A stretch of DNA of 64,000 bases from an uncultured Acidobacteriota bacterium (GTDB taxonomy: Bacteria; Acidobacteriota; UBA6911), in contig CAWHCF010000036.1 of the NCBI GenBank assembly GCA_963827655.1, forward strand, positions 224,001 through 288,000, given 5' to 3'. Under the pieces are notes generated by a model. The model was given only the letters and a program-made list of their open reading frames with translations, was not told the DNA's origin and ran no database searches. Positions 5,554 to 49,800 of the stretch are shown piece by piece (within the stretch, counting starts at the first letter, position 1; every line of letters starts with the position of its first letter). The position numbers and the translations under genes are program-made.

Positions 5554-6495
5554 ATGGTTAACAGATCGGCGCCATGGATTTGTGTGATCCTGGCGCTTGC
5601 ACTTGCGCAGGAGCGGGTATCCGGTCAGGCGACCGATCGCATGCCGTCGATCTCGGAACAAGTCTCGGCCATCGAGATGACTGTCTCCAGGGCCCGCGAC
5701 GGCCGTGAAACGGCCGCCGCGGTGCGGAGACCGCCGGGCCGGTCAGGACCTCTCCCGGCCGTCGTGCTGTTTCATGGCGGTTTGGACGAGTGGCCGGTCA
5801 CCAGGTTGAAGCGGGCGGTGCTCAATCAACCACTGCCCGCTTTTTTCCTGGCCGAAGGCTATATGATCGTCCAGGCCACTTACCGGAGCCGGAGTGAGGA
5901 CCCACAGTCTCCGAAAACCGTGTGGGACGCCGTCGCGATGGTCGAGCACGTCAAGCAGCTTCCCGGTGTCGATCCCAGGAGTGTCGTGATCTGGGGCACA
6001 AGCGGTGGGGGAAGCCTGGCTTTCGAGCTGGCGGCCGAGATCGAGGTCGCCGCGATCGGCGTGTGGGAGCCGGGCACGATCATTTTTTCGGGAATGCTCA
6101 CCAAGGGGAACCAGGTTGGCAAGGTTTTGTCTCCTGATCCACGGCGTTACTGGACACCCGAGATCGAACGACGCACGCAGGAAAGGCTCCGGCGACTCAG
6201 CTGTCCGATCTTCGTCGGCCATGGCGACGTGCATCCGCTCAAGGAACTCAACTTCAAGTTGTTTTTCCCCGAACTGTTGAGAGTGGGGAAGCCGGTTCAG
6301 ATCAACGTCTATCCCGGAATGCAACATGGAATTTTTTACTGGTACGACAAGGACCGGTTGCCATACATCAAGAGCTTCTTCGACGATTGCAATTACATGT
6401 TCAAAAAATACCTTGCGACCCAACCGGTTCCGATGGATCCCAGCGCGATCCAGTGGGTGCCCGACAGCCCCGCGAATACGATATTGGAGCGATAA
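5554..6495 (+). CDS. Secreted alpha/beta hydrolase (dienelactone hydrolase/S9-like)
   Basis: Signal peptide, HGG oxyanion motif, WGTSGGG nucleophile elbow, YPGMQHG. Confidence 0.85.
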   Translation: MVNRSAPWICVILALALAQERVSGQATDRMPSISEQVSAIEMTVSRARDGRETAAAVRRPPGRSGPLPAVVLFHGGLDEWPVTRLKRAVLNQPLPAFFLAEGYMIVQATYRSRSEDPQSPKTVWDAVAMVEHVKQLPGVDPRSVVIWGTSGGGSLAFELAAEIEVAAIGVWEPGTIIFSGMLTKGNQVGKVLSPDPRRYWTPEIERRTQERLRRLSCPIFVGHGDVHPLKELNFKLFFPELLRVGKPVQINVYPGMQHGIFYWYDKDRLPYIKSFFDDCNYMFKKYLATQPVPMDPSAIQWVPDSPANTILER

Positions 6496-8308: not shown

Positions 8309-8575
8309 GCCGCGCGTTGGAGTGACGACCGTCAGCTTCCTCCCGGTCGGCCAGGAACAAATTCAGCGAACTCTCACCTGTAGAATGTCGCAGACAGTAT
8401 CTCGAGCGTCGTTGAGAGGGCCAAGGCTCGGCACTGGAGTCTGAAGTCGAGGCTGAGCTGGAGTGCCACTAACCGAGGGCCGAAGCCGGCATTGATAGCC
8501 CCGCTCTAGATTGGAGTAGTGCTGAGCGGGTCATGGCATGAGACTTGCCTCAAAACGAGTTCATTTGTTGCCACT

Positions 8576-8617
8576 GGGGGTCGGACGGGCTTGATAGCCC
8601 GTCCGCACATGTATCGG
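8576..8617. repeat. REP-like hairpin, copy 1
   Basis: CGGACGGGCTTGATAGCCCGTCCGCACATGTATCGG (36 bp) is identical to 16700-16735. Confidence 0.85.
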
Positions 8618-8654
8618 GAAGGCTTTGCGAACTTGTGACGTGCCGTGGATCCGA

Positions 8655-9593
8655 TCAGCGCATGACACCTTGCCCGGGCGGATCGGGCACCCATTGGACC
8701 TGGGAGCGATCCAATGGAACCGGCTGCGTCGGCAGAAACCTCCGGAAAAAGCTCTCCTCTTCCTCGAAGGTGCGCTGCAGCTTCTCGATCCTGCCTTCTG
8801 CAGAATACCAGGAGAGCCCGTGCGGCATTCCGGGGTGGATGCTGATCGTTACCTTCTTGCCGGCGTTCAGGAGCTCGGGGAAGAAGAAGTCGAAATTAAG
8901 CTTCTTGAGAGGGTGAACGTCGCCGTGGGTCACGATGACGGGACACCGGATCTTGGCGAGCTTCTCCCGCGTGAGTTGCCGGTGCCGATCCGTAAAATAC
9001 TTGGCGGGGTCGGCCATGATCGGCTTGGCGCTCCCCTCTTCATCCGGCCCACTTTTCGTCATCATCCCGGTGAAAAGAACCGTGGCCGGCTCCCACGCGG
9101 CGACCGCGGCAAGATCGGTTTCTCCCGCCAACTCGAGGACGAGACTGCCGCCACCGCTTCCTCCCCAGGCGACGATGCTCTTCGGGTCGACCTGAGGCAG
9201 CTTCTTGACCTCCTCGACCACCGCGAGAAAATCCCACAGCGCGCCGGGCGCCTGAGGGTCTTCTCTGCGGTCGCGCCATGTGGTGAGAACCGTGATGTAC
9301 CCCGCAGCCAGGAAATAAGCGGGATAGGGTTGTTCGGTCGCTCCCTTCTTCAGTTGTTCGGCGGACCACTCACTAAGCCCGCCATGGGACAGAACGACCG
9401 CCGGCAGCTTCCCCCGGGAGGTCGGGTAGCGCACGACGGCCCGCGTCACGTGTCCGTCGCGGGCCGTGGCGGTGATCACCTTCATCGGAGAAACCTGCTC
9501 GGACACGTGAGGCCGCTTGTCGACCGCTCGGGCCTGAGAGGCCACTGAACTTGCCAGCACGAGCATGGCCAGGAATGAGGCAATTCGTTTCAT
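8655..9593 (-). CDS. Secreted alpha/beta hydrolase, paralog of 5554-6495
   Basis: HGG, WGGSGGG, HGDVHPL, HPGMPHG; signal peptide MKRIASFLA. Confidence 0.85.
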   Translation of the reverse strand: MKRIASFLAMLVLASSVASQARAVDKRPHVSEQVSPMKVITATARDGHVTRAVVRYPTSRGKLPAVVLSHGGLSEWSAEQLKKGATEQPYPAYFLAAGYITVLTTWRDRREDPQAPGALWDFLAVVEEVKKLPQVDPKSIVAWGGSGGGSLVLELAGETDLAAVAAWEPATVLFTGMMTKSGPDEEGSAKPIMADPAKYFTDRHRQLTREKLAKIRCPVIVTHGDVHPLKKLNFDFFFPELLNAGKKVTISIHPGMPHGLSWYSAEGRIEKLQRTFEEEESFFRRFLPTQPVPLDRSQVQWVPDPPGQGVMR

Positions 9594-40000: not shown

Positions 40001-40596
40001 TTCCGGTCGTCGCCATTCTCGTGTGGGTTGAGTTCGTGGAGAAGCCAGGACCTGGCCAGCCGCCAGTCGCGCATGACTGTGTCGGCGGAAACTTTCAGGA
40101 TCTCCGCGGTTTCATCCACGCTTAGGCCGCCGAAGAAGCGCAGCTCGATTACCTCGCTCTTGCGCCGATCGATGGTCGCGAGGGCCTGCAGAGCATCATC
40201 GAGAGCGACCAAATCGGGCCCTTTTTCATGCGAAAACGTAGATGCCTCTTCGAGTGGCACGTGGCGGGCTTCTCCCCCGCGCCTGATGTAGTTGCGCGAG
40301 CGCGCATAGTCGACCAGTATGCGGCGCATCAGCCGCGCCGCTATCGCGAAGAAGTGGGCCCGGTTCTGCCAGCTCAAGCTGCGGGTGTCAATCAGGCGCA
40401 TGTAGGCCTCGTGTACCAGAGCGGTGGTCTGCAGCACGTGCCCGCGCTGCTCCTTCCTCAGGTAGCGCCGGGCCCGCCGATGCAGCTCGTCGTAAACCAA
40501 TGGGGTCAACTTATCGAAGGCTTCCTGATCGCCGTTGCTCCACGCAACCAGAAGTCGCGTTATTTCTTTCGGGGAGGGAAGTTTCTTCGATACCAT
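39997..40596 (-). CDS. ECF sigma factor (TIGR02999-like, kinase-associated)
   Basis: LQTTALVHEAY, NRAHFF, LRFFGGL, RDWRLAR; overlaps the kinase start. Confidence 0.93.
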   Translation of the reverse strand: MVSKKLPSPKEITRLLVAWSNGDQEAFDKLTPLVYDELHRRARRYLRKEQRGHVLQTTALVHEAYMRLIDTRSLSWQNRAHFFAIAARLMRRILVDYARSRNYIRRGGEARHVPLEEASTFSHEKGPDLVALDDALQALATIDRRKSEVIELRFFGGLSVDETAEILKVSADTVMRDWRLARSWLLHELNPHENGDDRK

Positions 40597-40815
40597 CTTC
40601 AGCAGAACCGCGTTTTACGTGGTTTCCAATATTATAGTGCCCGCACCATACTCCTTTCTTGTTTATTTTGTGTGCGCGGATCCTCCAAGAAGTGATAGGG
40701 CGGTCCGTCGATCCGCGAGCCACTTGGACGAGTGTCGGCTAATCGGAAACTGACAACAGACTGAGCAAAATGCCTTGTGAGTCTTCCATCGGTATCCCCT
40801 GCGTATGAGTGCCTC

Positions 40816-41460
40816 TTATTTCAGCGATTGTCCTGCAGGCGGAATAAAGATGAAGTACGAACCCGGAGAATCATCGACTGTCTGCATTATCTTAAAGTCT
40901 TTCAGACCGGCATTCTCCAGGATTTTCGTTAGAGCGTCGGCAACTCTCTCATTGCTCAGATCGATCGTCACCAGCTTGCTCTCAGAAGCGGTCTCCCCGA
41001 AAAGACTGTACCCAACGGCAGCAAATTTGAAAACGTCCTCCAATACAAATCTCAAAGGAACGTTTTCAAACCGCATGTTGGATCGCATGCGTTTATCAAG
41101 CCCGCTCATCAACGGAGTCGAGCGAGATGACAGGCCCGAGGTCTCGAGTTTTGCCAATGGTTCGATTACGAGTTGGCCATTCTCAACGCGCCAGCCACAG
41201 CGGATGCTTTCGCAAATTACGTCGAGGGCTGTTTGTTGGGTCACGCCGTGGGCCCGTACCGTAATCATCTGACTTACTTGTTTATCCAGAGCTACCTCAC
41301 AATTCAGGTCTCGTGCCAGCATCCCAAATACTTCCAACGGGTCGGCGCCTGCAAAGGCAATGGAGACTCGTTTTTGTGGATTCACCTGAGGCGATGCCGA
41401 TGCAAGGCTCATCAAGAGGGGGATGACCAAAAATACAGTTGGACCAATTGTTCCCTTCAT
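40816..41460 (-). CDS. Secreted protein with STN/secretin N-like domains
   Basis: Signal peptide and two repeats (VSIAF..ALDVIC; FENVPLRFVL..ALTKIL). Confidence 0.6.
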   Translation of the reverse strand: MKGTIGPTVFLVIPLLMSLASASPQVNPQKRVSIAFAGADPLEVFGMLARDLNCEVALDKQVSQMITVRAHGVTQQTALDVICESIRCGWRVENGQLVIEPLAKLETSGLSSRSTPLMSGLDKRMRSNMRFENVPLRFVLEDVFKFAAVGYSLFGETASESKLVTIDLSNERVADALTKILENAGLKDFKIMQTVDDSPGSYFIFIPPAGQSLK

Positions 41461-41560
41461 TTCATCTGCCTCCATGAGTACAGGCACCAGGTGCGGCCCT
41501 CAGAAGTGAGCTCGGGCGACGGGGACGGGCATCTTAGGATACGGGAGCATTCCAGCCTAG

Positions 41561-41800
41561 TCACGGCTCTTGAGGATTTGGTGTTGAGTTTTTCTCTCTG
41601 ATTTTTTGCATCCGAGCTTTCATTGCATCCGCCTCAGCAAAGCGGCGACTTTCCTGAAGGAGCCCAGCATAGTACTGCAGGGGTTGCAAGCAGGTTGGAA
41701 TCCTCCGGTCCATATTCACTTTCCAAAGCCTCGAGACATATTTTATAGAGATTCTCCGCTTCCGCGAGTCGCCCCTGCCTGCGATATGCCACGCACAGAT
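41561..41800 (-). pseudogene. TPR (kinesin-light-chain-like) protein fragment
   Basis: QGRLAEAENLY..YGPED and YAGLL..RFAEA in different frames. Confidence 0.5.
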
Positions 41801-42042
41801 TGTTCGCAGAGAACACGATTGCGCGGATATCCGTGGAGCCTTCGCGACCGTAAGCTTCACCGCTCCATTTGCGGAGACCGGCCCGGCGGTGTTATACCTG
41901 AAGCACGCAGGTATGTGAGCCACGCGATTGCGGAGGCATCGCATGTTCCTCTGCAACCTGGCACCGCAGGAACCGTATCGCAGATAACGGGCGAGTGCCC
42001 TCGATCAGCGGCATTCTGAGTTGTTTCTCGTCGCCGCGACAT

Positions 42043-42924
42043 ATGGGCGAAACGTTTACGCCGAGCAGGACTGCCGAGGTAATGGCGCTCTTCCGTGCGC
42101 TCGAAACGCTCCGTCCACCGCAGGAACGGCTGTTTGCGGACCCGCTGGCGGAGCATTTCTTGGGCTCCTGGGGACGTGCTTTGGTCATCGTGTCGCGCAT
42201 CCCTTTCGCCCGTCGGTTGGTTGAGCGGGTCGTGGATCGGAGGTGGCCCGGTGCCCGTACGTCGGCGATTGCACGGACTCGCCTCATTGATGATGCAGTC
42301 GGTTTGGCGATGCACGATGGTGCCGCGCAACTTGTTCTGCTTGGCGCGGGATTTGACAGTCGTCCGTATCGACTAGCAGTCGGCCGCGCCCGAATATTCG
42401 AGTTGGATCAGCCTGCGACACAGAAACGAAAGATTCAGGGGATTGAGGCTCGATTTGGATCATCTGCGAAAAGCGTCATCTACATTCCGGTCGACTTCCA
42501 GACGCAAACTGTCGACTCCGCGCTGCGCGCGAAAGGATTCGATCCAGACGCCCTATCACTTGTTGTGTGGGAAGGAGTCACGAACTATCTGTCGGAAGGC
42601 GCCGTTGACGTAACACTACGGTCGGTCGCAAAGGCTGTAGCTCCCGGCAGTGCCATGGTCTTCACCTACGTCCATCGCGGTCTGCTTGATGGATCGGTTG
42701 AATTCGCCGGAGGCGCTCAGATTTTGGAGCAAGTTCGCGCGGCGCACGAGCCGTGGACGTGCGGGTTCGAACCGCGGGATCTTCCGTCATATCTTGCGGC
42801 GCGCGGATGGACGCTCATCGACGATTTGTCGGCCGACGAGTATCGCGCCAGGTACTTCGGCGCCGCGGCGCAGTTGATGTCAGGATACTCGTTTTATCGT
42901 GCCGTCCTTGCTCGCCGGCAGTAA
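42043..42924 (+). CDS. SAM-dependent methyltransferase (LCM/TIGR00027-like)
   Basis: LFADPLA, RTRLID, QLVLLGAGFDSR, ELD, WEGVTNYL. Confidence 0.92.
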   Translation: MGETFTPSRTAEVMALFRALETLRPPQERLFADPLAEHFLGSWGRALVIVSRIPFARRLVERVVDRRWPGARTSAIARTRLIDDAVGLAMHDGAAQLVLLGAGFDSRPYRLAVGRARIFELDQPATQKRKIQGIEARFGSSAKSVIYIPVDFQTQTVDSALRAKGFDPDALSLVVWEGVTNYLSEGAVDVTLRSVAKAVAPGSAMVFTYVHRGLLDGSVEFAGGAQILEQVRAAHEPWTCGFEPRDLPSYLAARGWTLIDDLSADEYRARYFGAAAQLMSGYSFYRAVLARRQ

Positions 42925-43075
42925 CGCCGAAGTTTTGCAGAAAACATCGGCGCGAGCTCCCTGCACCTCTCGGGACCAGAGGTCCTATTGTGGGAAGTTC
43001 CAGAGGTTTATCTCTTGGTCACCTGGACGTATAGTCGGCTAACCGTCCATTAGGCCTATCAGCATGTACGCTTGA

Positions 43076-43141
43076 TTAGACGGGTTCGATGCCGATCTGG
43101 TCATTTACCGCACCTTTCAAACGCTGCTTGCATCCGATATA
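43076..43141 (-). pseudogene. Tyrosine recombinase C-terminal tail
   Basis: YIGCKQRLKGAVNDQIGIEPV*; family assignment is from memory of ...TTERYLGCKQ..AVND.IGIEP integrases. Confidence 0.7.
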
Positions 43142-43169
43142 AATCAAATGTGCTGCAGGACATTTCAAG

Positions 43170-43244
43170 TACCTCGGCTGTAGACAGAAGCCTCGAATCG
43201 CCGTGAACGACAGCCTTGGAATCGAACCCGGCCAGGCAGCCTGA
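43170..43244 (+). pseudogene. Second tyrosine recombinase C-terminal tail
   Basis: YLGCRQKPRIAVNDSLGIEPGQAA*, homologous to the opposite-strand tail. Confidence 0.7.
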
Positions 43245-43302
43245 TCGTCGAACGGGGCGGCATAGATCACCCCTTGGCGACTTTGCGCGATGTGTCGTTC
43301 TT

Positions 43303-43683
43303 TTACATGTCGCTGCGGAAATCATAGAAGACACGAATGAGGTTGCCATCAAGATCGGCGACCATAAACTCGCGCAGCTTCCACGGTTTGTCCTCGGGCT
43401 CGGAAACGATCTTCGCGTTCGCGGCCTTCCACTGTGCGAAGAGTTCGTCTACCTCAGCCTTGCTGTCGAGATTGAGCCAGAAAAGGATAGGGCCTATGTT
43501 GCCGTAGGACTCTCGGAAGGAGCGATTGGTGATAAACAGTCTGCAATTCCCCCTTGAGATGCCTGCAATGCCGCCTTGGTCGTCCCCCCAATCGAAGGTG
43601 AAGCCCAGCGTGTTGACATAGTAGGCAACGGCTTTGTCGACGTTGGCCGCGGGGATCTCCGGGACAGGAGCGGGGAACGTCAT
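43303..43683 (-). CDS. VOC/glyoxalase family protein
   Basis: YYVNTLGF, PEDKPWKLREF..DLDGNLIR. Confidence 0.88.
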   Translation of the reverse strand: MTFPAPVPEIPAANVDKAVAYYVNTLGFTFDWGDDQGGIAGISRGNCRLFITNRSFRESYGNIGPILFWLNLDSKAEVDELFAQWKAANAKIVSEPEDKPWKLREFMVADLDGNLIRVFYDFRSDM

Positions 43684-44041
43684 GCAGTGAATCGTAGCAC
43701 GAGCACGCGGCTTGGACACCCAGGAATATCAGGGGTTGAGTTCAATCCATAAGTTTCGTCGATCATTCGTGATTAACGCAGCTGGCGTCCTTCAGCGCAA
43801 AAGCGTGAAGGAGGAATGCTATGGCTCGATGCATCGTGCGGAAGAGGATATTGACGTGCTTTTTGATCCCAGCTCCGGTGCAGCTTTCTGGTCAGGCACC
43901 CGCACCAATGGATTCACGGGAGGTCGTTGCGGACAGAAAACGACTGGCGGCCGGTAAGGCTTGACCTGTTGGAATCGCCAGCAAGCTTCGGAAGCGCCCT
44001 CAGCGGACGGGCCGATGGCTCGCATACCGCTCGGGACCCGG

Positions 44042-44455
44042 TCAGGAGAGGGGTGAAGCCGGAGGGCGCCCGGGCTCGTCAGCCGAGGGTCCGACTCTCT
44101 GGATCAGCTCCCCCACCACTAAGAACCAGCCCTGGAGCTCCGCTGCCGTCGGCGCCAGCTCGTACGGGTGATGGTGGCAGGCCCGGCTCAGGGCCGACCA
44201 GGCGTGGCCGGCGCGTGCGGCAAGCTCCGCGTCCTCCAGGTAAGTCCGCAAGCAGATGAGCTGGGCCCGCATCGAGCAGCCCTGGAGATCGAGCGTCCGG
44301 CGTTTCCACAGCCCGAGAACGCTTGCCTCGAGAGCTTGCCGGGCGAGGAGGGCCGAGGCCCGGGGCCACAGACCGGCTGTGGACGGATCCACTCGGCGGA
44401 GCAGGCCGCGGGCCATGTCGAGAAGCTCACGTGGGTTGCCCTCCCCTCTAGTCAA
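44042..44455 (-). CDS. Small helical protein with HEPN-like motifs
   Basis: ARQALEA helix and RACHHH (Rx4H); TTG start overlaps the ATPase stop (TTGA). Confidence 0.7.
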   Translation of the reverse strand: MTRGEGNPRELLDMARGLLRRVDPSTAGLWPRASALLARQALEASVLGLWKRRTLDLQGCSMRAQLICLRTYLEDAELAARAGHAWSALSRACHHHPYELAPTAAELQGWFLVVGELIQRVGPSADEPGRPPASPLS

Positions 44456-46899
44456 CGCAGCCCCTGCAACCACGCCGCCAGTTTGCTCGCCCGCCGGACG
44501 AGGTCGACGGCAGCGAGCGCCTGGACCTCGTAGTCCCCCTCATGGCATTGCCGTAGAGTCTCGGCGCCTCCCGGTCCGACTTCGTGGTCGAGGTGGGGGA
44601 GGACGTCCCCGACGCGCTCGACATCGTCGAAGACGGCGAGGGCGGCCAGCCGTGTCAGGCGACCCGCTTCGGTCAGCGTCCGCTCGACCTCGGCATGCGG
44701 CTCTCCACGGGTCAGCCGCCGCCGGCGCACCACCTCCATGCACGCGGCTTCGAGGGCGAGGCAACACAGTCCCGGCACCACTCGAGCGGCCGCCGAGGAG
44801 GGAAGATCGGCAGTGCTGGCCACCGTGAAGGCGTCCTCGAGGTAGCGACCCACGGGATCGAGGGCCCGCCGCAGCTCCACCACCGAGGCCTCCCGGCGAG
44901 TCACTTCGACGATCTCGGCGGCGATGTCGAGCCGGCGAACGGCTTCGGGAAGCCGGTCGTCGTGGGTGAAGACCAGGACTTGGCGGTTCGCGGACGCGCT
45001 CTCCAGGACGCGGGCCAAGCCGTCGACCCGGGCCGGGTCCATCGACTGCACCGGGTCATCGATGACAATAAAGCGGAAAGGGCTCTCGGGGAGGGTGGCC
45101 CGAGGTACGAAGAGACTTAGGGCGAGCGAGTGCAGCTCGCCCTGGCTCATGACCCCCAGAGCAGCGCCGCCGACACCATCGATGGTGACGTCGAGGGCCA
45201 CGCGGCGTCGTGTGCCCTCTCCTGTGAGCTGGATCTTCCCTAGCTCCACGTGGCTCTGCTGGCGGAGATACTCCCAGATCCGGGCCGCTTTCTCGGCGAT
45301 GGGTGCGAAGCGGTCATCACGGATCCCGGCCGCCGCCTTTTTGAGCCAGGCCTCGGCCGGCTTGAGCCGCTTCAAGTCGGCGGCTCCCCGTACGGCTTCG
45401 TGGGCGCCCGCCAGCCAGGTCGCGACCTCGACGGCCACCGGTCGCCACGCGTCCTCCTTGCGCCCAAGTTCGGCCCGCGCCCTTTCTCGCAGGCGGACGA
45501 TCGCCTCCCGCAGCGGTTCACTGGCTGACTCGACGTGGTCGGCCAGCTTTCCGAGGTCGGCTATCGATCCAGCCTTGACCCAGACCCCCAGCGCTTCGAC
45601 GAACTCGTCCAGGTCCAGGCCCAGGCCGGCCGCGCGCGTGAGCGCCTCCCCTTTCAAGGTGACCAGGCCTTCCCACTGGCGCCGAGCGGCGTCGGCCCGC
45701 TCGTGGATGGCGTCTGCTTCGCGCGCCGCTTTATGAAGACGGGCCGCGGCGGCCCGTTGTCGCACGCTCCAGGGCCGGTCGAGGGCGCCTTTGCGGCCGC
45801 ACACCGGGCAGTCGGCGTCGCCGTGAGCGGCGTGATACTGGAGAGCGAGGTCGAGGAGCGCCGCCGCTTCGCGGGACCGGGCCTGCGCCGTCCCCAGGGC
45901 CGACTGCAAGGCCGCAGCCGCGGTGCGCATCTCGGCGACGGCGGCCGACACTCGCGCGGGCTCGGGTGGCTCCAGGCTCGCGATCCCCCGGAGTACGTCG
46001 ACCTCCGCCGCCCCGGCTCCCGGAGACGGGGCTCCCGAGAGCACTTCTTCGACCGCGCCGAGATCCCACTCCTTGCCGTCGAGGGCGGCGACGACGCGCC
46101 GTGCCCGGGCGTCGTCCACGTTACGCAGGCGCTCGATCAGGCGACCCCGCGCGTCGGTCGCGTCCTTGAGAGCCTTCTCACGCGAGCGGCGGGCCTCCTG
46201 GAGCGCGCGCTGGGCTTCGACGAGGTCCTCGAGACCCAGGATCGAGGAGAGGGCATCGTAGAGCTTCGAGGGCCCTTCGTCGAGCAGGGAGCCCAGCTCG
46301 TTATAGGAAAGGAAGGGGCGATGGGTGCGCAGGGCCGCGGTCCAGCCCAGGGACCCAAGGTCGGACCGGGGCTTGCCGTGAAGCTGGGCCGAGGCTTCGG
46401 CGGCTTCGAACGCCGCCCCGGGTTCCCAACGGCGCCACATCTTGCACGGCCCGTGCTCACCTTCGACGAGAAACGTCGCTGTCAGAGACGCCGTGGGATG
46501 ATGGAGGTTCCGCCAGCCCTCGCGCCAGACGGCGGCGCGCTCCTTCCAGCGCAGACTGTCGCCGGTGAGAAGGACCTCAAGGGCCTCGGCGAAGCTCGAC
46601 TTGCCGGAGCCGTTACGCCCTACGACGAGCGTCAGGCCGGGCCCGGGCCGCAGCTCCAGCGTCTGTGCAGGACCGATCCCGCGGAACCCTTCGACGGCGA
46701 TTGACTGCAGGAATGCGCCGGCGGGCGCCGGAGACACCTGCGCTACGGCACTGCGCGGCGCGGCCGCGCTGCCCGACAGTTCTGCCTCGATCCCGGAGGC
46801 GCCTTCGAGAGCTGCGAGGACGAGCGCACCCCACGCCTTCTCGATGGGGCCGTCGGCCTCGAGCCGCGACAACACGATGTTCCTGATGCCCGGGTCCAT
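44452..46899 (-). CDS. Rad50/SbcC/RloC-like ABC ATPase with zinc hook
   Basis: Walker A GRNGSGKSS, coiled coil with CPVC, signature MSQGE, Walker B IVIDDPVQSMD, H-loop FTHD. Confidence 0.88.
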   Translation of the reverse strand: MDPGIRNIVLSRLEADGPIEKAWGALVLAALEGASGIEAELSGSAAAPRSAVAQVSPAPAGAFLQSIAVEGFRGIGPAQTLELRPGPGLTLVVGRNGSGKSSFAEALEVLLTGDSLRWKERAAVWREGWRNLHHPTASLTATFLVEGEHGPCKMWRRWEPGAAFEAAEASAQLHGKPRSDLGSLGWTAALRTHRPFLSYNELGSLLDEGPSKLYDALSSILGLEDLVEAQRALQEARRSREKALKDATDARGRLIERLRNVDDARARRVVAALDGKEWDLGAVEEVLSGAPSPGAGAAEVDVLRGIASLEPPEPARVSAAVAEMRTAAAALQSALGTAQARSREAAALLDLALQYHAAHGDADCPVCGRKGALDRPWSVRQRAAAARLHKAAREADAIHERADAARRQWEGLVTLKGEALTRAAGLGLDLDEFVEALGVWVKAGSIADLGKLADHVESASEPLREAIVRLRERARAELGRKEDAWRPVAVEVATWLAGAHEAVRGAADLKRLKPAEAWLKKAAAGIRDDRFAPIAEKAARIWEYLRQQSHVELGKIQLTGEGTRRRVALDVTIDGVGGAALGVMSQGELHSLALSLFVPRATLPESPFRFIVIDDPVQSMDPARVDGLARVLESASANRQVLVFTHDDRLPEAVRRLDIAAEIVEVTRREASVVELRRALDPVGRYLEDAFTVASTADLPSSAAARVVPGLCCLALEAACMEVVRRRRLTRGEPHAEVERTLTEAGRLTRLAALAVFDDVERVGDVLPHLDHEVGPGGAETLRQCHEGDYEVQALAAVDLVRRASKLAAWLQGLR

Positions 46900-46931
46900 G
46901 CGCCTAGTGCCGTTCCAACTTGTTGTCTCTA

Positions 46932-47166
46932 AGGGTTCGTGAAGAAATAAGTTCGCATTCTGCTGCAGGCCCCCAGGCCCGCTGGCGAGGCGCGAGCGAC
47001 GATGCGTACCCGGTGCGGTACGTGAGGAGCGAGCAACAAAGCCAGCGGGCCTGCGGGCCGCAGCCCGAAGGGGCGCGATCCTCAGCGTGCTTGGCGAACA
47101 GAAACCGGTTCATGATTGACCACCGACTCTCGCGCCAGAATGTGAAGTTATTTCTGCGCGAGCCCT
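46932..47166. mobile_element. MITE-like element, ~235 bp
   Basis: 31-bp imperfect terminal inverted repeats AGGGTTCGTGAAGAAATAAGTTCGCATTCTG / CAGAATGTGAAGTTATTTCTGCGCGAGCCCT; internal IR GGCCCGCTGGC..GCCAGCGGGCC; no transposase. Confidence 0.7.
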
Positions 47167-47256
47167 ATAGCATCGAAATCGAAGAGGCGAGTCGGCGTTT
47201 CAGGTAGCGGCCTCCGTTGCCAGTCTTCAGAAAGAACGTACGGCTCCGCGTCCAAG

Positions 47257-49023
47257 TCATCGGGCCTTCAGGATGAGGGCGGTCAGGTCGTCGCTGGAGC
47301 CCACCGCGCCCGCCCATTGGTTGACCGCCGCTATCAGGCCCTCCAGGATGGTGGACGCGCTCCCCCCGGAAAGTGTGCATAGAGCCTCGCAGACCCGCTC
47401 GTCGCCGAACTCGCGTTCGTCGGGAGAGTTGGCCTCGGTCACCCCGTCCGTTACCATGGCTACCACGTCCCCCGGCTCGAGCCTCACCTCGCCCGCCTCG
47501 TAGGACACATCATCAAGGATGCCCAGGGCGAGCCCGCCCGTCAGAAGCCGGCTCACCGTCCCGTCCCGGGCGACGCGGTAGGGCGGGACGTGGCCGGCGT
47601 TGACGTAGGCGAGCCGGCCCGATGCCGCGTCGAGTTCCCCATAGAAGAGCGTCACGTATTTATTGGCCTGGGTCTTCGCGAAGAGGAAACCGTTGAGGCG
47701 CTCGATCACCTTCGCGGGCGCTGCCGTCCCCGCCAGCGCCTGCATGGATGCGTGGACCGAGGCCATCAGAAGGCTGGCCGGCGTCCCCTTCCCCGAGACG
47801 TCCGCTATGAGGAGGGCGAGTCGGCCGCTTCCCAGGTTGATCCAATCGTAGCAATCGCCGCCCACCTCGTAGCATGAGCGGCTCTCGGCCGCCATGTCGA
47901 AGCCCGGGATCGCGGGGAAGTGCGGCGGGAAGAGACTGCGCTGGATCTCGCGGGCGAGCTGCAGCTCGCGGTCCTGCCGCTGCTTCTCGACGCGCAGCCG
48001 GTGCAGGCGCGCGCCTTCCAGCGCGGCGAATGCGTGACGGGCCAGCGTCTGAGCGAAGTCCCGGTCCTCCGACGAGAACGGCGTGCGAGAAGCGCGCTCC
48101 CCGATGGCCAGGACCCCCTCGACGCGCTCCCCAGCCGTCAAAGGCACTGCGAGGGCCAGCCGGGCTTCCTTCAGCCGCCGGCGCAGCGGTCCGTCCGGCA
48201 ACTCAGCCACCTCCTTCGGCCCGAGGAGGTCACGGAGCGCGGCCCGCGCCTCTTCGGGAGGGATTGGCGCGCTGTTGACCTCGCGCCGCAGCCCGCGTTC
48301 GTACACGAGGGTCAGTCCTCGCGGCCCGAGGAGGTAGAGGCCGCAGCGCGAGACCACGAAGTGGCCCATGACGGTGGTCGTGATGAGGCCCTGGATCGCC
48401 TCCTCCTCGAAGCTACCTGTCAGCTCACGGCTGACGTCGAACAGGTTGTGGAGCTGGTACACCTTGACTGAGAGCTTCTGCTTCACGCGCCTCAGCTCGT
48501 CGTAGATGAGGTTGTTCTCGACCGGAGCGGCGGCACAGGCGGCCACGCTGCGCAGGAAGGCGTGCTCCTCCGCGCCGTACGCGTCTCCTCCCGCTCGGGG
48601 GCCCAGGCCGAGCACGGCGATCGCGCGCTCGCGGCGACGGATCGTGCACAGCAGCACGAGACCGTGGCGGGCATGGGCCTGGTCGCCGGGCCCCAGGGCC
48701 GTGAGGTCATCGGGTGGCGCCTCAAAGCCCAGTGTGGAGGGCGCCCCCGGCGGGAGGCCGCACGAGGCCCGGATCGCGAAGGTGTCGTCGTCGCGCCTCA
48801 CGAAGAGGGCCCCCCGCGAGGCCTGCATCTCTGACATGACGATCAGAAGGGCCGCGTTCAGGCTCTCCTCACTGGCGAGGCCTGAGCTGAGCGTGGTCGT
48901 GAAGTCGAGGAGCGAGATCAGCTCCGACATCCGCTTGAGGAGCGGTGGCTTCCTCCCCCCCTCCCGCCGGAAGTGGTCGAGGGCCTGCTGGTACTCGCGA
49001 ACCACGGGGGTGGAGGCCGACAT
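47257..49023 (-). CDS. GAF-GAF-SpoIIE/PP2C phosphatase (RsbU-like)
   Basis: VGGDCYD, DVSGKG, NAGH, TDGVTEA, DDLT. Confidence 0.92.
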   Translation of the reverse strand: MSASTPVVREYQQALDHFRREGGRKPPLLKRMSELISLLDFTTTLSSGLASEESLNAALLIVMSEMQASRGALFVRRDDDTFAIRASCGLPPGAPSTLGFEAPPDDLTALGPGDQAHARHGLVLLCTIRRRERAIAVLGLGPRAGGDAYGAEEHAFLRSVAACAAAPVENNLIYDELRRVKQKLSVKVYQLHNLFDVSRELTGSFEEEAIQGLITTTVMGHFVVSRCGLYLLGPRGLTLVYERGLRREVNSAPIPPEEARAALRDLLGPKEVAELPDGPLRRRLKEARLALAVPLTAGERVEGVLAIGERASRTPFSSEDRDFAQTLARHAFAALEGARLHRLRVEKQRQDRELQLAREIQRSLFPPHFPAIPGFDMAAESRSCYEVGGDCYDWINLGSGRLALLIADVSGKGTPASLLMASVHASMQALAGTAAPAKVIERLNGFLFAKTQANKYVTLFYGELDAASGRLAYVNAGHVPPYRVARDGTVSRLLTGGLALGILDDVSYEAGEVRLEPGDVVAMVTDGVTEANSPDEREFGDERVCEALCTLSGGSASTILEGLIAAVNQWAGAVGSSDDLTALILKAR

Positions 49024-49800
49024 GGCACTCGGAAACCTATAGGAGATTAGAATACGCAGCCGCGACGGCAGAGTTCCCGGAGCGAGGCCTCCCGCAACTC
49101 GTGCGAGAGATGCACGGCATGACGCTTCGTCGTTCCGGAAATCTTACAGGCGTTGTATATCGCGAAGGCGTCCGGCGAGCAAGGGAAATGGTGGCAGCGG
49201 ATGGTTGCCTCGCCGATGTGGGGACTGGGAAGGTCGGGATTGCCTCTACTTCCCCGGCAACCAGAACCGCCCTCGCAGCCCTGACGTTGCTCGAAATGCG
49301 CTCCTCCAGCCCCGGCCCCGCGCGAAATTTCGCTTCCTCCGGAAGCCTCCACGATAGAAACGCTTATATGCGTATCTCACGAAATCACGAATCTCACGCT
49401 CATCATCGCCAGAAGGACGTCTATCACCGCATTGATCGATGAGGGTGACTGCTCTGTGGGGGATCGGCAATCGAGATCTTCAGCATCTCCTTCCGCCTTG
49501 GGAACTGCATTACTCGTGCCAGATCGTTCTTGGGTTCGAGATGTATCGTAAAAAGCTGATTGGAATAAAGTTCACAAAGGATGCGGCGAATCGCGTGGCG
49601 AGAACTGTCTAAGGTGTCGACACGACACGTGTCGAGAGGTGTCGGACTTTAGACACAATTCCCGCGAGCCGACTGTGAACAAGCGGACAGCGAATAATCG
49701 AAGTACTGAAGGCACATGATTCATCCAGAGCAATGGAGACGTCTAAGAGCTGGCGACGGGAGGGGGAATACCCTATGGCGAGCGCCGCTCGCGCTGATCC

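Follow-up and report, generated by a model that had tools for sequence, protein, structure and literature searches.

RIT elements, which carry the trio of adjacent and overlapping tyrosine-recombinase genes ritA-ritB-ritC between inverted repeats, are widespread, yet they are the least understood of the tyrosine-recombinase transposons. The elements, their repeats and the palindrome at their ends are already described in the accessible text of four papers (PMC3414803, PMC5737581, PMC8138268, PMC10214605), within a literature that includes Van Houdt et al. 2009/2012 and Ricker et al. 2013; the same text names pHG1 as rich in RITs and mentions RIT insertions in a transposase gene and in radC (PMC3414803), and it lists the target specificity of RITs as not tested (Table 1 of PMC10214605). 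In full-text searches of the accessible literature, an insertion of RITs at the catalytic codon of recombinase genes is nowhere stated, and neither solo sites nor mini-RITs are described. The locus concerned here lies at 43.1 kb of a stretch of 64,000 nucleotides (nt), hereafter the window, on contig CAWHCF010000036.1 (C36) of an uncultured Acidobacteriota bacterium (genome G000, 8.18 Mb, assembly 90% complete), where the C-terminal tails of two tyrosine recombinases stand back to back around the palindrome of RIT elements; it is probably an inert scar of RIT activity and not a cassette system.

The site occupies a gap of 378 base pairs (bp) between convergent methyltransferase and VOC genes. 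On the minus strand, positions 43076..43141 encode YIGCKQRLKGAVNDQIGIEPV followed by a stop codon, and on the plus strand positions 43170..43244 encode YLGCRQKPRIAVNDSLGIEPGQAA, likewise closed by a stop codon; both translations bear out the original prediction of two integrase tails on opposite strands, and each tail opens at a catalytic Tyr codon. The 28 bp between them (43142-43169) read AATCAAATGTG-CTGCAG-GACATTTCAAG, with 11-nt arms complementary at 7/11 positions around the CTGCAG centre, exactly as had been read. Comparison over 93 sites divides this unit into a 4-nt spacer between Tyr codon and palindrome, AATC (43142..43145), fixed in position and variable in sequence, the RIT-associated 20-bp core AAATGTGCTGCAGGACATTT (43146..43165) and a second variable 4-nt spacer, CAAG (43166..43169). 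The core is identical at 19/20 positions to a perfect palindrome, and its sole mismatch, a G for C at position 14, breaks the symmetry. On both sides, the window shows the layout of core, four variable nt and a TAY codon opening a recombinase tail that characterizes the "RIT junction or solo site", a class first defined in the present analysis, and the flank motif test assigns both flanks to the tail class, not to the repeat class, for which it looks for a RIT repeat of about 30 nt that opens with TAT and has an ATG...GT block at a fixed distance. The minus-strand tail is followed by the native 3' flank of its integrase gene (42973..43075), recognized by blastn homology running past the stop codon, and the plus-strand tail by a weakly supported 3' flank (43245..43330) that travels with it in other strains, as seen in one soil contig (run X1, record 5). 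The alignment of this last flank to that of the other arm displays a weak motif likeness.

Compared with described systems, the locus is closest to RITs, as its core is the palindrome seen at the ends of ritA-ritB-ritC elements; unlike them, the window holds no RIT but only the site between two foreign tails. Integrases of the SSV1 type have attP within int, and their own gene is split, with its N-terminal piece at the other end of the element; here too an integrase gene is split site-specifically and its C-terminal piece is left beside the site, but here it is foreign genes that are split, and G000 was found to contain no N-terminal part of the family, on which ground an SSV-type split gene was rejected. 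Tn916-type transposons carry coupling sequences, and Tn554 and SE elements leave 6-bp footprints according to the accessible text of a review of such elements (PMC10214605); similarly, the four nt beside the RIT palindrome vary by copy and often repeat the last four nt of the interrupted gene, whereas the fixed 20-bp palindrome beside the putative RIT exchange region has no counterpart there. The dif, pdif and IMEX systems share the 28-bp unit, the 6-bp centre and the inverted arms, as well as simple Xer-related recombinases (accessible text of PMC8138268), and the dif-type 11-6-11 layout fits. Only the inner 7 nt of each 11-nt arm, however, are conserved among the 93 copies, and the outer 4 nt are not. 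A dif site proper was rejected, since the guanine-cytosine skew does not switch at 43.1 kb of the window and other organisms have the core at more than one locus in their genome (four loci in Paraburkholderia sp. LEh10); in contrast to pdif, G000 holds one site, so no module is bounded by a pair. With integrons, RITs share a palindromic site at one end only of the inserted unit and a crossover that would fall at the palindrome edge; they differ in that the inserted unit is the recombinase element itself, and no IntI, attI or array is found in G000.

In a tblastn search of the whole 8.18-Mb genome, each tail is the only significant match of the other (12/20 residues alike, E about 3e-4), in agreement with the earlier view of two homologous yet diverged sequences starting from the same Tyr. 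Their family can be named: a relative of the same bacterial family (G007; relatives' genomes are coded G002-G019, loci L001-L117 and soil metagenome runs X1, X2 and X3) encodes an intact recombinase of 324 residues (L002, 595-1569) that ends in HVSVQTTEKYLGCKQRLKGAVNDQIGIEPAL, matches Pfam PF00589 over residues 135-304 (E 2.3e-20) and scores as XerC/XerD-like in NCBIfam, far below the cut-offs. The tails align to its residues 302/303-322. Specifically, the minus tail is identical to residues 303-322 at 19/20 positions and its first matched residue is the catalytic Tyr of the G007 recombinase, which substantiates the proposed match to tyrosine recombinases and the identity of this Tyr as the nucleophile. 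The plus tail shares 14 of 21-22 residues with the G007 tail, is closest to KQKLR-type tails (L014, L062, L063) and belongs to a diverged branch of the same recombinase family. For the minus arm, the DNA of G007, G014 and G019 remains homologous for another 50-170 bp beyond the stop codon (blastn spans of 42973-43141 to L003 of G019, 43020-43141 to L002 of G007 and 43019-43135 to L004 of G014). Moreover, a soil contig of run X3 carries an intact allele of the plus tail, which matches the window from 43168 on (43168-43344) and upstream of that position reads ..GHVSIQTTEQ-YLGCRQ.., in frame with the Tyr. A second short X3 contig holds a RitC-type tail joined to ATA-AATC-core.

Members of the tail family that have no palindrome look different. 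The intact genes (L002 and the X3 contig) have none before the Tyr, and the decayed palindrome-free copies of relatives break elsewhere than at the Tyr codon: the reading frames of L003 and L004 are disrupted by a frameshift or stop, what is left of L005 begins at about residue 278, and internal deletions in L006 and L013 fuse about residue 33-41 to about 294-299. The break exactly at the Tyr thus goes with the palindrome. The two deleted copies are mini-genes (L006 of G017, about 1385-1566; L013 of G002, about 1834-2016) of about the first 32-41 and the last 25-30 codons, which suggests that the integrase gene with short flanks is a small mobile element in its own right, with both ends retained in cis. 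The idea that the tails are terminal repeats of the integrase's own element of about 1 kb, in the manner of a miniature inverted-repeat transposable element (MITE), was discarded, as no inverted tail copy lies upstream of the intact or near-intact genes in L002-L006.

The palindrome itself recurs widely. Its perfect form, AAATGTGCTGCAGCACATTT, occurs in a genome of the same class (L008), where it adjoins a different recombinase tail, YTHVLNRGGRGVRSPADAL up to the stop codon, that likewise opens at Tyr. A scan of public genomes, with one genome per species and an exact core required, so that diverged sites are under-counted, found the core in 92 stretches from Acidobacteriota, Burkholderiales (Cupriavidus, Paraburkholderia, Caballeronia, Burkholderia), Acidimicrobiia, Chloroflexota and others; the recurrence that had been anticipated for the motif therefore holds across genomes and fails within G000, which has a single copy even at ≤3 mismatches. 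The G variant of the window, or anything similar, is present in only 2/92 scanned stretches, and the other carrier (L098) has no adjoining Tyr codons. After the removal of six duplicate or overlapping loci (L001, L009, L021, L059, L077, L100), the census counts 93 sites, the window among them; many of these loci are short or end, with their contig, at the core. At 152/183 readable flanks (those at least 7 nt long), exactly 4 nt separate the core from a TAY codon, against about 3% by chance. This answers whether orphan tails start at the Tyr beside the site and, together with the palindrome-free copies that break elsewhere, upholds the argument that the identical breakpoint is not random decay. 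The tail openings vary (YLG 21, YLH 18, YLK 13, YTH 7, and others), which indicates that several recombinase families are involved.

By simple motif tests, 51/93 sites have a RIT inverted repeat on one flank and a recombinase tail on the other, 20/93, including the window, have tails on both, 6/93 have a TAY on one flank only, 10/93 on neither, and 6/93 are other or too short to read; the repeat class is assigned by a fixed-position motif and misses some members, such as the right flank of L103. The 4-nt spacers are identical on both sides of the core in 20/90 sites (chance 1 in 256), and they differ between copies of one element, as in L017 and L046 of Cupriavidus lacunae. Cores with no adjoining TAY occur in L025, L028, L029, L036, L048, L053, L056, L067 and L074. 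At several TAY-less sites, a repeat-like flank opens with another triplet (AAT, TTT or GGA), and such flanks occur in Obscuribacterales, Chloroflexota and Coriobacteriaceae genomes; TAY-less sites may represent sub-groups with other targets. Other perfect 20-bp palindromes lie beside two RitA-like matches on RIT-like elements of the window's bacterial family, namely GAATGTGGAGCTCCACATTC in L113 (2861-2892) and CTATGTCGCTAGCGACATAG in L117 (1065-1084); both keep the 7-6-7 plan. The flank in L117 is a recombinase fragment that opens at the Arg-His box (PF00589 profile positions 133-169, E 5.8e-10), and an ISL3-type transposase suspected at the flank of the L113 palindrome was dropped for lack of a Pfam match.

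In the largest class, the palindrome belongs to RITs. It flanks RIT trios in L015, L020, L032, L064, pHG1 and others, and the window core matches it at 19/20 positions; the RITs that carry it have inverted repeats of about 30 nt around ritA-ritB-ritC trios of about 3.5 kb, and their rit genes stay whole when integrated. At 26 flanks a strong Rit open reading frame lies ≤400 bp from the core, which adjoins the RitA end in 11 cases and the RitC end in 15, once a flag in L068 is excluded as a neighbouring gene that is not a RIT; RITs therefore insert both ways round, always with the core next to the displaced tail. The order in L015 illustrates this arrangement: a tRNA-adjacent integrase that reads ..LGHKDPKMTMR up to the junction, the RIT repeat, ritA-ritB-ritC (each matching PF00589), the inverted repeat, CTTC-core-GGTC, the native tail and the tRNA. 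The repeat opens with TAT TAT GCG CAG and gives the interrupted gene the new tail YYAQRNVM before a stop, and the native tail behind the palindrome begins with YSHLSPEHLRFAVECLDKLG (YSHLSPEHL.. to its stop codon). The element of L064 is 90% identical to the RIT on megaplasmid pHG1 of Cupriavidus necator H16, where, on the right, an annotated "site-specific integrase" that ends ...QLMWHVQPSTTER runs into the repeat as YYRPKVF... and, on the left, the native tail YLGYRENCKLFDAVQ... lies beyond GCGC-core-GCGC.

The far repeat could be located in 20 junction sets, and in 19/20 it is fused in frame, at the Tyr codon, to an integrase body ending ..[GRW]H..T(T)xx, with no core on the gene-body side; the twentieth (L075) corresponds to the L083 gene in a frame shifted by one base. 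The criteria for a junction set excluded another three (L070, L072, L094), of which L094 still shows ...WLGHESVETTQI up to the junction. Because the far end is fused in this way, RITs of this group insert at the catalytic Tyr codon of recombinase genes and push the native tail behind the palindrome. Contrary to the original prediction, the site thus does not belong to the integrases whose tails are seen and travels with RITs, for which these integrase genes are foreign targets. The window's own tail family is among those hit: in L051 residues 2-303 are followed by a RIT, the core and residues 302-322, and L087, L091, L101, L102 and L104 are similar. RITs also interrupt the ritA or ritC of other RITs, with RitA-type tails in L027, L058, L082 and L095 and RitC-type tails in L037, L042, L052 and L094, assigned by eye from their likeness to the L015 proteins, and this insertion in ritA and ritC Tyr codons produces nested elements. 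Lastly, five mini-RITs of 378-433 bp (L040, L044, L095 and two in L076) have both repeats, a short interior and no rit genes and, like a MITE derived from a RIT, sit at a recombinase Tyr codon with the palindrome on the tail side.

These arrangements are compatible with a mechanism that is read throughout from sequence comparison. In this scheme, small mobile elements of Acidobacteriota would have supplied two related integrase genes of the Xer-like kind, each of them broken at its catalytic Tyr codon: the repeat would put its opening codon, TAT, in place of the Tyr codon, the gene body would gain a short new tail, and the native tail would be parked behind the 28-bp unit of four variable nt, 20-bp palindrome and four variable nt. 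At the gene-body junctions the native sequence reaches right up to the Tyr codon with no half-palindrome, which argues that strands are exchanged at or just before the TAY and led to the rejection, for primary insertions, of an exchange within the CTGCAG centre. The exchange may be a staggered one of 6 bp (4 nt plus TA) that carries flank bases along; the 4-nt spacers repeat the last four nt of the interrupted gene in 6/20 cases on the repeat side and 5/20 on the tail side, with 1 in 256 expected by chance. The core would offer an exchange point on each side, and two cores could also recombine together. A circle joint of repeat-4nt-core-4nt-repeat would comprise four 7-nt arms with three 6-bp spacers between them, about 46 bp in all, and would re-insert by one of the two exchange points that border the core. 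L087 and L051, which are copies of a single RIT within the same genome, fit such a re-insertion, and the imperfect palindromes of 47 and 51 bp at RIT ends in the accessible text of PMC5737581 are close to the proposed length.

A second recombination, at or between palindromes, would then remove both gene bodies together with the RIT and join the displaced tails head to head, starting from two divergent family genes or, alternatively, from a RIT junction that recombines with a second family gene. In L076, two divergent integrase genes each have their Tyr interrupted by a 378-bp mini-RIT (6025-6404 and 8536-8914), with cores that face outward and native tails beyond them; in L092 the same two tail types are joined by one palindrome, and its right flank is clearly homologous to L076, with a left flank that is more diverged and contains an insertion. 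L076 thus resembles the precursor, and L092 the product, of a deletion between cores. In L062 both tails belong to the window's family, whereas in L043 and L054 one such tail stands opposite an integron-integrase-like tail, and no recombinase open reading frame was detected ≤6 kb from the core in L019, L043, L052, L054, L061 or L062. One Acidimicrobiia genome holds tail-palindrome-tail inside a segment of about 3 kb that is present on two contigs (97% identity, L043 3058-6093 and L054 5928-8959).

Several points weigh against an RIT scar. Neither a RIT nor a gene body adjoins the window's site, and with no element seen in place the link to RITs rests on the 19/20 core and on the layout of 4 nt and TAY. 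The route from insertion to tail-core-tail is deduced from comparison of loci, and RIT transposition has never been reproduced in the laboratory, according to the accessible text of PMC10214605. The target DNA, by eye, shares only a loose ACN-ACN-N6-TAY, which does little to account for the recognition of a single codon in such varied genes. Nor did a precursor of the locus come to light: no methyltransferase homologue at E <= 1e-40 was found in the 40 relatives searched, and metagenome scans for the plus tail (exact 30-mer and degenerate back-translation) gave 0 matches, which is no evidence of absence. In addition, the occurrence of 43024-43330 in other contexts in two runs may fit a unit that has moved better than a static scar.

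As for G000 itself, a second tail and a second copy of the motif of left arm-N6-SACATNTCAAG type at ≤3 mismatches are both absent from the genome, which also led to the rejection of shufflon-like tail swapping. Searches with the intact G007 protein (tblastn) found no N-terminal part of the family in the 90% complete assembly, searches with RitA/B/C of L015 (tblastn) found no RIT trio, only separate matches of 25-33% identity on other contigs plus a RitC-like fragment of 73 residues on C8, and none on C36 near the site, and recombinase queries found no recombinase gene on this contig beyond the two tails. A fragment of 95 residues like the middle of RitC (C8:8295-8579, E 6.6e-17), with no RitA or RitB beside it, is a decayed RIT remnant. 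Among the 51 genomes of the bacterial family, the core at ≤1 mismatch is present in two, G000 and G014, the latter likewise in a tail-core-tail site, and RitA-like proteins of 33-36% identity are present in nine, G000 not being one of them. For G000, the feature of the window is a harmless relic.

The alternatives can be weighed on this basis. In the original prediction, a recombinase carries its own site within its gene at the catalytic codon, and tail-plus-site units delimit the methyltransferase and VOC genes as cargo of an integron- or pdif-like shuffling system at work in G000. The site-specific breakpoints, the 28-bp Xer-like layout, the mixed composition of the accessory flanking DNA and the classification of RitA/B/C as simple Xer-related recombinases in the accessible text of PMC8138268 would all suit it; however, G000 has one site at ≤3 mismatches with no second tail, no intact or partial gene body of the family and no RIT trio, intact family members lack the palindrome before their Tyr, and the palindrome travels with RITs whose own genes remain whole, so that the proposal, highly unlikely in general, is already contradicted for this genome, and there is no sign that the two genes are its cargo. 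A structured RNA or two-way terminator between the convergent genes, with incidental coding likeness, is barely credible. The region does fold into a long imperfect hairpin (-54.4 kcal/mol) at a suitable location, yet with a z of only -1.71 that 8/200 shuffles equal, 0 terminator-like sites and no Rfam match better than E 0.78, and the protein-level integrase homology explains the inverted repeat. That two pseudogenes decayed by chance, or that the assembly is chimeric at the palindrome, can be considered next to impossible: family pseudogenes are common in relatives (L003-L006, L013), but here both breaks fall at one codon, 4 nt away from the 20-mer whose layout recurs across the flank census, and soil contigs of two other studies (X1 record 5 and X2 record 10) span the junction at about 97% identity, which excludes an assembly artefact.

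Unlikely, though less so, is a unit of roughly 307 bp that is still live, either as a non-autonomous mobile unit or as a landing pad for a RIT or integrase acting in trans. X1 record 5 contains 43024-43330 in a single block that gives way to dissimilar sequence at either end, the unit runs into one other sequence left of 43024 in both X1 and X2 and departs from the window right of 43326 in X1, RITs or mini-RITs adjoin pre-existing cores in L064 and L076, and the mini-genes L006 and L013 suggest that family ends work in cis. The left boundary at 43024 recurs in C31:80534-80591 (L010, about 2035-2092), where a 58-bp copy of 43024-43079 is 88% identical and has no tail attached; this copy corresponds to the sequence just downstream of the stop codon of the minus tail and includes a GGACG...CGTCC hairpin. 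Conversely, the metagenome contigs are short and of low depth (about 5), G000 lacks both the RIT trio and the family integrase, only 2/51 family genomes have the core, its mismatch here breaks the symmetry, and the X1 and X2 contigs add two changes in the core, at 43157 and 43160, both A to G, as well as one that turns YIGCKQ into YLGCKQ. These substitutions in related soil strains suggest drift rather than constraint, in keeping with a scar that has probably lost its function. A broader version of the RIT scar is possible, although we regard it as doubtful: RITs would home into catalytic codons in the recombinase genes of other mobile elements, this group into the Tyr codon and a sister group of another palindrome into the Arg-His box, with strands exchanged over 6 bp (4 nt plus TA) next to a fixed palindrome. 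Through the exchange points on both sides of the palindrome, their enzymes would join any two recombinase genes and delete, invert or circularize what lies between, so that the scar would record gene shuffling and the disarming of integrases on the scale of islands. Under such homing, tail-palindrome-tail units would keep two element ends and may move again.

Around the site, a gene of the leucine-carboxyl-methyltransferase family (41995-42924, PF04072) and a glyoxalase/VOC gene (43303-43719, PF00903) form the convergent pair. Directly after the methyltransferase stop codon, at 42925-42952, lies a 12-nt inverted repeat of 92% complementarity (CGCCGAAGTTTT / AAAACATCGGCG) that may be the gene's own terminator, though the terminator scan does not list it. 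The guanine plus cytosine (GC) content, about 0.60 elsewhere, falls to 0.51-0.54 over 40.5-42 kb and rises to about 0.70 over 44-49 kb, with sharp shifts that bound 40500-42000 and 44000-49200; the high-GC block, which includes genes for an SMC/AAA-type ATPase (44452-46899) and for a phosphatase of GAF-SpoIIE type (47257-49023), is probably acquired DNA in view of its sharp composition shift.

The point of interest is the Tyr-codon rule and not the relic of the window itself. The rule is precise and testable: the palindrome is identical across phyla, and the truncated gene, as far as the junctions compared indicate, keeps its Tyr codon. If true, it would explain many annotated "orphan integrase fragments" and truncated integrases, it would provide a marker for past RIT activity and for genomic islands that lack a working integrase, and it would define the substrates, namely the target codon, the 6-bp exchange region and the palindrome, for a first laboratory assay of RIT movement.

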